Below, in pieces: positions 32,547 to 40,087 of a stretch of 41,455 nucleotides of DNA (the stretch's first letter is position 1; the number at the start of each line of letters is the position of its first letter). This stretch comes from a virus (taxonomy: Duplodnaviria; Heunggongvirae; Uroviricota; Caudoviricetes): IMG/VR virus record IMGVR_UViG_2585427970_000004; one strand, 5' to 3'. The notes under the pieces were generated by a model, which worked only from the letters and a program-made list of their open reading frames with translations, did no database searches and was not told the DNA's origin. Position numbers and translations under genes: made by a program.

Positions 32547-32575
32547 TTGACCATCAATACGCAAGCGTATAAATT
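32547..32575 (+). promoter_or_regulatory. PRM-like promoter for cI; transcript predicted leaderless
   Basis: -35 TTGACC (32547..32552), 17-bp spacer, -10 TAAATT (32570..32575), ending about 7 nt before the cI ATG at 32583, which has no SD. Confidence 0.45.
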
Positions 32576-32582
32576 AAAACTT

Positions 32583-33275
32583 ATGAAAAAAGAAACTCTT
32601 GCTGATCGCTTAAACCTAGCGATGGAACAATCTGGAATGTCTCAAGGCGCTCTTGCAAAGGCGTCTGGCGTAGCTCAACCCACAATCTGGAGACTGACAA
32701 GCGGCAACGCGCGTGGCTCAACAAAAATTGTTGAAATAGCTAATGCATTGGGTGTTCGAACAGAGTGGCTCTCATCAGGCATAGGCCCGATGAGAAATGA
32801 CGGTCAACAATCAGGAAAGCCTGCTGTCAACCATTCCAAATACTTCAAGATTGACGTTCTTGATATAGAAGTGAGTGCCGGGCCGGGAGTCATCAACCGT
32901 GAGTTTGTAGAAGTTCTACGCTCGGTTGAGTACTCGTTTGACGATGCTCGTCACATGTTCGATGGTAGGAAGGCAGAAAATATCCGCATCATTAACGTGC
33001 GTGGTGACAGCATGTCAGGAACGATCGAACCAGGTGATCTGCTGTTCGTTGATATCACGGTTAAATCTTTCGACGGTGATGGTATCTATGCGTTTCTGTA
33101 CGACGACACAGCCCATGTAAAGCGCCTGCAAATGATGAAGGATAAGCTGCTGGTTATCTCTGATAACAAGAGCTACTCACCGTGGGACCCGATCGAGAAA
33201 GACGAGATGAACCGGGTGTTTATCTTCGGGAAAGTTATTGGGAGCATGCCGCAGACGTACAGGAAGCATGGGTAA
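32583..33275 (+). CDS. cI: CI-like repressor (HTH_XRE plus S24 LexA-like peptidase domain)
   Basis: Start refined to ATG 32583 (MKKETLADRLNLAMEQSGMSQGALAKASGVAQPTIWRL…); C-terminal GDSMSGTIEPGDLLFVD…HVKRL autocleavage-type motifs (Ser…Lys); track start is TTG. Confidence 0.85.
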   Translation: MKKETLADRLNLAMEQSGMSQGALAKASGVAQPTIWRLTSGNARGSTKIVEIANALGVRTEWLSSGIGPMRNDGQQSGKPAVNHSKYFKIDVLDIEVSAGPGVINREFVEVLRSVEYSFDDARHMFDGRKAENIRIINVRGDSMSGTIEPGDLLFVDITVKSFDGDGIYAFLYDDTAHVKRLQMMKDKLLVISDNKSYSPWDPIEKDEMNRVFIFGKVIGSMPQTYRKHG

Positions 33276-33320
33276 AAATGGAATTTATGAAACTTTAAAT
33301 TAATCAAATATTGAGTTTAT

Positions 33321-33740
33321 ATGATGCAACATAATATTCATAGTGATTATTTCAAGTGGTGGTGTGGAACGGTAATCATTGGAGCAATCCCTATCTTTAT
33401 TAGATTTATTGCTTATTTCATCACTAATAAAAATATAGAGATGATCAATATAACTGAGTTGATATGTTTTGGCTTTGCCATACAAATATCCAGCATCTAT
33501 TACGGAATGGGCCAACCTAGTAAGCAAACTGAAAACAATATTATTTTAAATACTACTATATCGATTGTTTTCATTGTGATTTTTTCTATAATTTACATTA
33601 TTGTCATGCTGGCTGATAACATCCTTAACATGAATACGACTCGCATATTAGTCGCTATTACTTGTGGTATATCCTTATACATTGGACAAAATTCGGTCAG
33701 GTGTGCTATTATCAATAACAAATTAGCAGCGCAGGAGTAA
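33321..33740 (+). CDS. Small integral membrane protein (4 predicted TM helices), first gene of the cassette in the rexAB-equivalent slot
   Basis: 139 aa; four hydrophobic segments; very AT-rich; immediately downstream of cI. Confidence 0.55.
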   Translation: MMQHNIHSDYFKWWCGTVIIGAIPIFIRFIAYFITNKNIEMINITELICFGFAIQISSIYYGMGQPSKQTENNIILNTTISIVFIVIFSIIYIIVMLADNILNMNTTRILVAITCGISLYIGQNSVRCAIINNKLAAQE

Positions 33741-33743
33741 ATT

Positions 33744-33920
33744 ATGGAGTTCTTAATTACTATTTTATCCATAATAGCTGTTGTGATACCTGCTGTATTG
33801 GCATGGTTTTCAAGAAAAAACCTCAAAAATGCACAGGAAACTTTAATTCACATAGAAAGGATCAGAAAATCAAACAGCGATGACTTTGAAAGAAAGAAAG
33901 AACAACTTAAATATCACTAA
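33744..33920 (+). CDS. Small single-TM protein (58 aa), below the ORF-track threshold
   Basis: AGGAG RBS 6 nt upstream of ATG 33744; MEFLITILSIIAVVIPAVLAWFSRKNLKNAQETLIHIERIRKSNSDDFERKKEQLKYH. Confidence 0.4.
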   Translation: MEFLITILSIIAVVIPAVLAWFSRKNLKNAQETLIHIERIRKSNSDDFERKKEQLKYH

Positions 33921-34830
33921 TGGAATTGGTATGCAGTTAAAAAATATCATTTATATTGATTATGAGAAGGTCTACTCTTTAAGCTCTCAATTATTTGAGG
34001 GCGTAATTCAATCCGCGATGGAGCATAAAGAGTCTACTCTTTCAAATATAGATGCAGTCGAAATTAAGACAAAAAGTAGTTCAAGTAAAACGAGTGACAC
34101 AAAAAAATTATCAACAGTGTTAAACCCTCATGATTACCATTATCTGAAATTTGAAAACGAACTTAGCAATAGAGGAATTCTATCTAACATAACTTCCCCG
34201 ATCGACTCGAACAAAATTAAGGCTAATTGCTTTGTTAAAATCACCTGCCCTATTCAATTTAATGACTATAGTAAATTAAAAAATACCGCGAAGGATTTTT
34301 GTAAAATTCACTATGCTATTAATTTCGTTCATCGAAATGGTGAATTAGAAAACCTAGAATCGATGCTGAAATCGATAAAACCCAAATCCAATGAATTTAA
34401 TATTATCAAGGCAAGACAAGCACAAATCAAAAGTGAGCTTGATAATTTAACTTCTCCAAATAAGAAAAAGTTTCTTGAGCATCTGTCTTCTGTTTTAGAT
34501 TACGCATATGGTGACGAAATAGAAATATCACAAAAAATGCAAGATATTAAATTCACCTCATTCTTAATCAGAGATTTTCTTAAAATCAGCCCAGAAATGT
34601 TTGTAAAGTTATATTCTCGTCGAACGACCTCTGCATTCACTGTCGTAGGGATGATAACGCGTACATCAACGTCTGAAGGCGATCAGGAATCAGAGGCTCG
34701 TGAACTAAGCGGCATTCGCAGTGCGGTCTGGAATATGAATGACAGCCTTTTTGATCTGGAGTCAACATTTTGTGCCCCTGACTCTGATGAATATTTCATT
34801 GAGCCTATTGCTGTTTACAATGAGCTATAA
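33880..34830 (+). CDS. Hypothetical soluble protein (~300-316 aa), third gene of the rex-slot cassette
   Basis: ORF from ATG 33880 overlaps the 58-aa ORF by 41 nt; alternative start ATG 33931 lies 10 nt after that ORF's stop; no motif I can assign; AT-rich; followed by a terminator. Confidence 0.55.
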   Translation: MTLKERKNNLNITNGIGMQLKNIIYIDYEKVYSLSSQLFEGVIQSAMEHKESTLSNIDAVEIKTKSSSSKTSDTKKLSTVLNPHDYHYLKFENELSNRGILSNITSPIDSNKIKANCFVKITCPIQFNDYSKLKNTAKDFCKIHYAINFVHRNGELENLESMLKSIKPKSNEFNIIKARQAQIKSELDNLTSPNKKKFLEHLSSVLDYAYGDEIEISQKMQDIKFTSFLIRDFLKISPEMFVKLYSRRTTSAFTVVGMITRTSTSEGDQESEARELSGIRSAVWNMNDSLFDLESTFCAPDSDEYFIEPIAVYNEL

Positions 34831-34835
34831 AAACA

Positions 34836-34863
34836 ACCCGGCCACTGCGCCGGGTTTTCTTTT
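34836..34863 (+). terminator. Rho-independent terminator after the rex-slot cassette
   Basis: ACCCGGC-CACTGC-GCCGGGT followed by TTTTCTTTT, 6 nt after the stop at 34830. Confidence 0.65.
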
Positions 34864-35004
34864 GCCCTCCCCTCATCACACAAACCGTTCGAAAAACCAC
34901 CACAACCTCGCTTCAGTTACCGCTATGCGATGCAAGTCACAAAATTAATTCTTTTTGCTATCAAACAGTTAATATCAAAACACATCAATCAATAGCAATA
35001 AGTA

Positions 35005-35033
35005 TTGATATCACCAATAGCAATAGCTATTAT
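35005..35033 (+). promoter_or_regulatory. PL-like sigma70 promoter with operator-like repeats (OL)
   Basis: -35 TTGATA (35005..35010), 17-bp spacer, -10 TATTAT (35028..35033); upstream TCAATCAATAGCAA (34985..34998) identical to the OR copy at 32525..32538. Confidence 0.55.
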
Positions 35034-35106
35034 CACCATGTCGCAACAACACAACGATACGGCAACCACCTGATTCACCGTTGCGATGACCGCTTAGATC
35101 CGCAGC

Positions 35107-35517
35107 TTGAATTTCAGCAGGCTACGGGAAGTGCGAGGGGTGAAGCGGACGCGTGAACGTCGGTGTGACCAGCTGAAATCAACTCAACACTTCATACCTC
35201 AGTCGCTTCAACGAGGCGGCTTAGTTATGACAACCGGCGGCCATCCACCGCCTGAATACGCGCAGAAGTCTTTATATGTTCAGCAGCCCAGCTTACGGGC
35301 AGGAGCTTTTATGGTTCATCAACATTACGGAACGCAGACCGTTAATCGCGGTGCGGTCATGCCAGGAATGCTGGTCAAACACAAAGATGGTACCTGGACA
35401 GCATCAGCTAATTTACGCGGACGGCTATATCTGCATCGCGGCATCGAGCGCACTTATACCCGTGATTTGCTCGTGGAAGTTTTTCTCGACGGACGCGGTA
35501 ACGGCCTCAATCACTAA
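35107..35517 (+). CDS. Hypothetical ORF in the N/kil position; probably a 69-aa product from ATG 35311
   Basis: Long open frame with no ATG before 35227; ATG 35311 has AGGAG RBS 5 nt upstream ([32 protein letters not shown]…); upstream segment encodes an arginine-rich stretch (KRTRERR). Confidence 0.3.
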
Positions 35518-35592
35518 TCCCCTTTCCTGTTTTCCTAATCAGCCTGGCATTTCGCGGGCGATATTTTCACAGCCATTTTCAGGAGTTCAGCC

Positions 35593-35889
35593 ATGAACGC
35601 TTATTACATTCAGGATCGTCTTGAGGCTCAGAGCTGGGCGCGTCACTACCAGCAGATCGCCCGTGAAGAGAAAGAGGCAGAACTGGCAGACGACCTGGAA
35701 AAGGGTCTGCCCCAGCATTTGTTTGAATCGCTCTGCATCGATCATTTGCAACGTCACGGGGCCAGCAAAAAAGCCATTACCCGTGTGTTTGATGACGATG
35801 TTGAGTTTCAGGAGCGCATGGCAGAACACATCCGGTACATGGTTGAAACCATTGCTCACCACCAGGTTGATATAGATTCAGAGGTATAA
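35593..35889 (+). CDS. gam: Gam (RecBCD inhibitor), short GamS-type form
   Basis: 98 aa; [34 protein letters not shown]…HQVDIDSEV recalled as near-identical to the lambda Gam C-terminal 98 aa; AGGAG RBS; in-frame stop at 35536..35538. Confidence 0.9.
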
Positions 35890-35894
35890 AACGG

Positions 35895-36680
35895 ATGAGT
35901 ACAGCACTCGCAACGCTGGCTGGGAAGCTGGCTGAACGTGTCGGCATGGATTCTGTCGACCCACAGGAACTGATCACCACTCTTCGCCAGACAGCATTTA
36001 AAGGTGATGCCAGCGATGCGCAGTTCATCGCATTGCTGATCGTCGCCAACCAGTACGGCCTTAATCCGTGGACGAAAGAAATTTACGCCTTCCCTGATAA
36101 GCAGAACGGCATCGTTCCGGTGGTGGGCGTTGATGGCTGGTCCCGCATCATCAATGAAAACCAGCAGTTTGATGGTATGGACTTTGAACAGGACAACGAA
36201 TCCTGCACATGCCGGATTTACCGCAAAGACCGCAATCATCCGATCTGCGTTACCGAGTGGATGGATGAATGCCGCCGCGAACCATTCAAAACCCGCGAAG
36301 GCAGAGAAATTACGGGGCCGTGGCAGTCGCATCCCAAACGGATGTTACGGCATAAAGCCATGATTCAGTGTGCCCGTCTGGCCTTCGGATTTGCGGGTAT
36401 CTATGACAAGGATGAAGCCGAGCGCATTGTCGAAAATACCGCATACACTGCAGAACGTCAGCCGGAACGCGACATCACTCCGGTTAACGATGAAACCATG
36501 CAGGAGATTAACACTCTGCTGATTGCCCTGGACAAAACATGGGATGACGACTTATTGCCGCTCTGTTCCCAGATATTTCGCCGCGACATTCGCGCATCGT
36601 CAGAACTGACACAGGCCGAAGCAGTGAAAGCTCTTGGATTCCTGAAACAGAAAGCCTCTGAACAGAAGGTGGCTGCATGA
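35895..36680 (+). CDS. bet: Bet (Red-beta single-strand annealing protein)
   Basis: 261 aa; [66 protein letters not shown]… recalled as near-identical to lambda Bet. Confidence 0.95.
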
Positions 36681-37357
36681 CACCGGACATTATCCTGCAG
36701 CGTACCGGGATCGACGTGAGAGCTGTCGAACAGGGGGATGATGCGTGGCACAAATTACGGCTCGGCGTCATCACCGCTTCAGAAGTTCACAATGTGATAG
36801 CAAAACCCCGCTCCGGAAAGAAATGGCCTGACATGAAAATGTCCTACTTACACACCCTGCTTGCCGAGGTTTGCACCGGTGTGGCTCCGGAAGTTAACGC
36901 TAAGGCGCTGGCCTGGGGAAAACAGTACGAGAACGACGCCAGAGCCCTCTTTGAGTTCACTTCCGGCGTGAATGTTACTGAATCCCCGATCATCTATCGC
37001 GACGAAAGTATGCGCACCGCCTGCTCTCCCGATGGTTTATGCAGTGACGGCAATGGCCTTGAGCTGAAATGCCCGTTTACCTCCCGGGATTTCATGAAGT
37101 TCCGGCTCGGTGGTTTCGAGGCCATAAAGTCGGCTTACATGGCCCAGGTGCAGTACAGCATGTGGGTGACGCGAAAAGATGCCTGGTACTTTGCCAACTA
37201 TGACCCGCGCATGAAGCGTGAAGGCCTGCATTATGTCGTGGTTGAGCGGGATGAAAAGTACATGGCGAATTTTGACGAGATGGTGCCGGAGTTCATCGAA
37301 AAAATGGACGAGGCACTGGCTGAAATTGGTTTTGTATTTGGGGAGCAATGGCGATGA
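36677..37357 (+). CDS. exo: Exo (lambda 5'-3' exonuclease)
   Basis: 226 aa; [44 protein letters not shown]… recalled as near-identical to lambda Exo. Confidence 0.95.
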
Positions 37358-40011: not shown

Positions 40012-40087
40012 TGGTGCCGATAATAGGAGTCGAACCTACGACCTTCGCATTACGAATGCGCTGCTCTACCAACTGAGCTATATCGGC
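40012..40087 (-). tRNA. thrW: tRNA-Thr (anticodon CGU), thrW-like; prophage integration target
   Basis: rc = GCCGATATAGCTCAGTTGGTAGAGCAGCGCATTCGTAATGCGAAGGTCGTAGGTTCGACTCCTATTATCGGCACCA; cloverleaf with anticodon loop TTCGTAA, TPsiC-loop TTCGACT, 3' CCA. Confidence 0.9.

Follow-up and report, generated by a model that had tools for sequence, protein, structure and literature searches.

Lambda Gam is found in two forms that presumably arise from two translation starts, and both are active when expressed from plasmids (PMC5218532). The gam locus on a 41,455-nucleotide stretch of viral DNA (IMG/VR record IMGVR_UViG_2585427970_000004; the whole stretch is referred to as the window) raises the question of whether the longer form, GamL, can be made at all from this copy of the gene, or whether, as a first-pass annotation of the sequence had proposed, only the short, GamS-type protein is encoded.

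The gam gene and the frame upstream of it

The relevant part of the window holds the early-left recombination genes of a lambda-like prophage, namely a kil-like gene, gam, bet and exo in that order. The features on which the argument depends are as follows.

35311–35517, + strand: gene for a Kil-like cell-division inhibitor, 68 aa from ATG 35311 (NCBIfam match below cut-off; annotation of relatives)
35518–35592, + strand: kil–gam spacer, 75 nt, non-coding (lambda alignment)
35536–35538, + strand: in-frame TAA, 57 nt before the gam ATG, the shifted-frame equivalent of lambda cCTAATc (alignment and sequence reading)
35576–35579, + strand: TTTT run, one T more than the lambda TTT, 14–17 nt upstream of the gam ATG (lambda alignment)
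35581–35585, + strand: Shine–Dalgarno sequence AGGAG, 7 nt ahead of the gam ATG (direct sequence reading; kept in lambda and in distant Gam loci)
35593–35889, + strand, stop codon counted: gam, encoding a 98-aa GamS-type inhibitor of a host nuclease, RecBCD (open reading frame list, PF06064 and PDB matches)
35895–36680, + strand: bet, RecT-family annealase, immediately 3′ of gam (Pfam RecT, 115.6 bits; synteny)
36677–37357, + strand: exo, lambda exonuclease with a YqaJ domain (Pfam YqaJ, 106.7 bits; synteny)

The gam frame runs from the ATG at 35593–35595 to the TAA at 35887–35889, and its 98-aa product matched the Pfam Gam profile PF06064 with 214.5 bits (cut-off 25), residues 1–98 falling on profile positions 1–98 of 98. 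A phmmer search aligned the same residues with residues 1–98 of the GamS chains 5MBV_A and 2UUZ_A from the PDB (E = 2.3e-60, approximately 95% identity). Like lambda GamS (PDB 2UUZ, 2UV1 and 5MBV), the window protein is therefore a 98-residue chain that is collinear over its whole length, and it differs from the solved chain by a few conservative substitutions, for example L22I, M35L, S61A and A65V. The position of the gene also follows the lambda Red module, 3′ of a kil-type gene and directly 5′ of bet and exo, an order that is annotated likewise in lambda, PhiR26_1, 933W and E. coli T2. NCBIfam and PADLOC scans of the window returned no match to a Gam model, which reflects the content of these libraries and has no bearing on the identity of Gam. 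The window protein is a lambda-type Gam encoded by a normal, intact gam gene.

Binding and inhibition of RecBCD by this protein are suggested by its approximately 95% identity to the protein in the RecBCD–GamS cryo-EM structure. The GamS dimer is a partial DNA mimic that sterically blocks the DNA site of RecBCD, and one of its N-terminal helices enters the RecB channel for 3′ single-stranded DNA (PMC5218532). By virtue of this near-identity, the window Gam would likewise form a dimer that mimics DNA and sits in the DNA-binding site of host RecBCD, so that linear phage DNA would be protected.

Translation of the gam frame from 35413 revealed two in-frame stops ahead of gam: the TAA at 35536–35538, and a second TAA at 35515–35517 that is the stop codon of the Kil-like open reading frame, itself in frame with gam. 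No in-frame ATG, GTG or TTG was found between 35539 and 35592. In the window there is accordingly neither an in-frame start approximately 120 nt upstream of the GamS methionine, as required for a GamL-type gene, nor an uninterrupted frame from such a start, which the two TAA codons break. The first-pass annotation had placed the gam start at ATG 35593 behind an AGGAG ribosome-binding site and an in-frame TAA 57 nt farther upstream, and direct reading of the sequence agrees on both points (35593 − 35536 = 57 nt). Taken alone, the upstream stop is unremarkable, because at this base composition chance would place an in-frame stop among the 19 codons ahead of a start in approximately 58% of cases. 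Its significance lies solely in the comparison with lambda, whose frame stays open for 40 codons upstream of the GamS start, an outcome with a chance probability of approximately 0.16.

Comparison with lambda and possible routes to a longer Gam

The lambda counterpart of this region was examined by nucleotide alignment of the window with the lambda reference, NC_001416. The kil stop (TCACTAA) is the exact point at which homology with lambda sets in; from there it continues at approximately 96% identity through gam, and the two loci share the gam ribosome-binding site, the start context and the place upstream of bet and exo. The Kil-like gene is unrelated in sequence to lambda kil, and its TAA at 35515–35517 marks the onset of the homology. 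In lambda, Gam is annotated as a 138-aa coding sequence (32816–33232), which is GamL, with an open 40-codon extension; the corresponding frame is closed in the window. The GamL ATG, at record position 33232, lies inside lambda kil (33187–33330), a region that has no counterpart in the window.

Two features, independent of each other, make GamL impossible here. First, an unrelated Kil-like gene replaces lambda kil and, with it, the GamL start codon. Second, a T-run that is one base longer shifts the frame, so that gam is closed off by the two TAA codons: the window reads CCATTTTCAGG where lambda reads CTATTTCAGG (in an alternative extract of the indel site, CAGCCATTTTCAGGAG versus CAGCTATTTCAGGAG), and the extra T turns the lambda codons CTA-ATC (Leu-Ile) into a TAA-containing frame. 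In a three-frame walk, moreover, the GamL-equivalent frame ahead of the indel proved to be open from no earlier than 35502 and to lack a start codon, so that GamL could not be initiated even without the extra T. The alignment with lambda gam and its upstream sequence, which had been put forward as a check on the short-form proposal, thus closes the long form, and together with the three-frame walk it bears out the claim that an N-terminally extended Gam cannot be initiated here.

The spacer between the Kil-like gene and gam is homologous to the part of the lambda GamL extension that lies downstream of kil. A terminator scan flagged a hairpin at 35542–35559 followed by a T-run, and the lambda tL2 terminators presumably map near the kil–gam spacer. 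No terminators are annotated in this region in two lambda records. The fold of the window spacer was no better than that of shuffled sequences (z = −0.97), and a consensus fold computed from seven diverse spacers was weak (−2.15 kcal/mol), as was covariation; a conserved RNA structure or terminator in the spacer was not established.

A longer Gam could in principle be produced by recoding, either through readthrough of both TAA codons from the Kil-like open reading frame or through a −1 shift from a second open reading frame (35276–35596, + strand, 106 codons) that overlaps the Kil-like gene. The shared frame of the Kil-like gene and gam would allow the former; the latter draws on the end of the 35276–35596 frame in ATGA at the gam start, its TGA overlapping the gam ATG; and in one relative, L002, both stops are mutated and kil, spacer and gam form a continuous open reading frame. 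We nevertheless consider recoding very improbable in the window. Two tandem TAA codons are the strongest kind of termination signal, the T-run contains no canonical X XXY YYZ slippery heptamer, the spacer structure is not significant and gam has its own strong ribosome-binding site. The 35276–35596 frame lies wholly within the Kil-like gene and spacer in another frame, and it is probably spurious, because its ATG is not preceded by a ribosome-binding site. Frameshifting from an upstream start in another frame, which had been named as an observation that could overturn the short-form proposal, accordingly fails: there is no upstream open reading frame that could plausibly be joined to gam.

Equally slim are the chances of a non-canonical start in the spacer, for example at ATT 35563 or ATT 35575, which would yield a Gam a few residues longer than GamS. 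In-frame ATT codons are present there, and rare non-canonical initiation does occur in E. coli, but these codons have no Shine–Dalgarno sequence, the sole such sequence is placed for ATG 35593, and distant homologues keep the AGGAG–ATG arrangement rather than the upstream codons. In the preferred reading, translation of gam would start only at ATG 35593, from the strong AGGAG site, and give a 98-residue protein collinear with lambda GamS; no feature of the sequence speaks in favour of a longer one. It is thus highly probable, judging from the sequence and its alignments, that the short GamS form alone is encoded and translated in the window, and that this short-only arrangement is common among lambdoid phages.

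Relatives and surrounding genes

The distribution of the two arrangements was surveyed in two samples of gam loci. In a similarity-ranked sample, consisting of IMG/VR loci fetched with the Gam protein and of loci from genome contigs, 54 loci had the stop at −57 and no upstream start. A less biased sample of IMG/VR loci was fetched by a 27-nt pattern at the gam start and provided at least 117 usable loci; it is a convenience sample, drawn from among the matches listed and containing many related E. coli prophages. Among these listed matches, an in-frame upstream start was absent from 85 of 117 loci, whereas the other 32 had a GamL-like open reading frame that begins, as in lambda, with an ATG at −120. 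Counted as distinct sequences over both samples, again among the matches listed, approximately 96 of 126 were closed and 30 of 126 open. Short-only Gam is the majority state among the relatives, and the open GamL frame of lambda is a minority state.

The four-T allele was found in 80 of the 117 IMG/VR loci among the matches listed, which were assembled independently, and also in phages 933W and PhiR26_1. It is paired both with the window-type Kil-like gene and with lambda-type kil, in which case the GamL ATG is present and out of frame. More generally, 1-nt indels occur at two places in the spacers of relatives, one of them in a C-run just past the kil stop. The recurrence of the allele bears on the least probable of the alternatives, namely that the extra T at 35576–35579 is a sequencing or assembly error in a phage with an open, lambda-like GamL frame: homopolymer runs are prone to indel errors, but the identical allele occurs in these many independent records and in complete E. 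coli genomes that are 99.6% identical, and with one T removed the frame into gam would still lack any ATG, GTG or TTG from its opening at 35502, because lambda kil, and the GamL ATG embedded in it, are missing from the window. A sequencing error at the upstream stop, the other circumstance that had been thought able to undo the short-form proposal, is thereby set aside.

Closest to the window are the Escherichia phages PhiR26_1, 4A7, Lambda_4C10 and Perceval and many E. coli prophages, which have the same arrangement of Kil-like gene, spacer and gam at 96.6–99.6% nucleotide identity. E. coli T2 is 99.6% identical over 35400–35900, and its Gam was annotated as 98 aa by PGAP (WP_000995411.1); PhiR26_1 is 98.1% identical over 35200–35900, and its Gam is likewise annotated as 98 aa. 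In both records the annotated length, which we checked, is that of the window protein. The genes between the repressor and kil differ between this group and the window, whereas the kil–gam region is essentially the same. Of 5,426 complete E. coli genomes, which contain roughly 4,100 gam places in all, approximately 2,141 have a match that covers at least 80% of window positions 35400–35900, and a match of this coverage must reach into the window-type Kil-like gene. The Stx phage 933W and related Stx-converting phages resemble the window in the identical four-T allele, the TAA 57 nt upstream and the annotation of a 98-aa Gam (AF125520 for 933W). Unlike the window, where the Kil-like gene is another one and this ATG is lacking, 933W retains a lambda-type kil together with the GamL ATG, which the shared four-T allele puts out of frame. 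A 98-aa Gam in such phages is therefore already known, having been annotated by depositors and by the NCBI pipeline.

More distant Gam genes, with 69–76% protein identity, were found in Citrobacter, Escherichia sp., Pseudescherichia and an Enterobacteriaceae genome. They begin at the GamS-equivalent methionine after an AGGAG-like site. In most, a stop closes the frame a few codons before this methionine, and the indels by which the spacers differ have lengths not divisible by three.

Several individual loci departed from these patterns. In L002 (IMGVR_UViG_2713896771_000008, approximately 1108–1794), mutation has changed both TAA stops ahead of gam, to TAC and GAA, leaving the Kil-like gene, spacer and gam in one frame that is open for 393 nt upstream of the GamS methionine, a potential natural Kil–Gam fusion. 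In L098 and L099 (chromosomes of E. coli ECMA0423 and Shigella flexneri, approximately 1460–1790), a Gam-like gene with 83% identity does not have the MNAYY start. Approximately 10 codons upstream is a GTG that may serve as its start, with GGAAGGA as ribosome-binding site; the gene may have diverged or be in decay. Lambda-identical gam regions appeared in assemblies of Shewanella, Pseudomonas, Kitasatospora, Oceanobacillus, Neobacillus, Chromatium and others (L086, L088, L094 and others of L084–L093), several of them on contigs of approximately 48.4–48.5 kb. These are contaminating lambda DNA and not real prophages; the genome-contig scan consisted mostly of such lambda contamination, and the contaminant loci were left out of the main counts.

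The genes around the module were also inspected. The Kil-like product scored 61.8 bits against NCBIfam NF008465 ('FtsZ inhibitor protein'), under the cut-off of 92, and its equivalents in PhiR26_1 and E. coli T2 are annotated as Kil or as 'phage encoded cell division inhibitor protein'. A search for an N antiterminator gene ahead of the Kil-like gene, at 34940–35310, found none. Operator-like TATCACC repeats with a promoter-like site lie at 35005–35033; with no N gene separating these repeats from the Kil-like gene, kil–gam–bet–exo seem to be the first genes of the early-left operon. PhiR26_1 has the same N-less layout.

Farther upstream is a low-GC cassette (33321–34868, approximately 31% GC versus approximately 52% around it) that encodes a 139-aa membrane-like open reading frame (33321–33740) and a 316-aa DUF6414 protein (33880–34830) and ends in a terminator-like hairpin (34836–34868). 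It adjoins a cI-like S24 repressor gene (32547–33275), in the position of rexAB in lambda, and PADLOC gave no match in it. The same slot holds a Ser/Thr kinase and a PP2C phosphatase in E. coli T2 and a lipoprotein in PhiR26_1, and has the look of a variable site for morons or defence genes. Elsewhere in the window, matches at the Rfam gathering score were obtained for an ALIL pseudoknot (2173–2289, − strand, 116 bits), a programmed-frameshift element of IS3-family insertion sequences, and, near the other end, for a tRNA (40015–40087, − strand, 71.8 bits), which is possibly the prophage attachment site.

Status of the GamL extension

The minority position of the open frame among relatives leaves its status in lambda to be weighed. 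The GamL extension is intact in at least 24 distinct sequences of the lambda-type subgroup, and GamL may therefore still matter in lambda itself. A codon-position test for selection on the extension across lambda-type sequences drew on just 11 polymorphic sites, distributed 2/3/6 by codon position, and gave no clear signal in either direction. Set against this, we give even chances to the reading that lambda GamL is a lineage-specific, probably accidental open frame and not a selected isoform. That reading draws on three observations: single-nucleotide indels that break the frame are common in the spacer, also in loci that retain kil of the lambda type and the GamL ATG; every distant Gam gene begins at the GamS methionine; and a 40-codon open stretch is not improbable by chance, as calculated above. 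If GamL is indeed accidental, the conserved spacer would be non-coding, perhaps regulatory or terminator-like.

Whatever its role in lambda, the GamL extension is, as far as comparison of these loci indicates, not conserved, and the 98-residue form appears as the conserved unit of the Gam family. The window itself has the ordinary and commonest gam configuration, which is of little wider import. When lambdoid prophages are annotated, the GamS methionine is the right start for Gam, and the 138-aa call of lambda should not be copied to relatives. For users of Gam in recombineering, in cell-free expression and as a model RecBCD inhibitor, these comparisons support the 98-residue form as the functional unit conserved in evolution.
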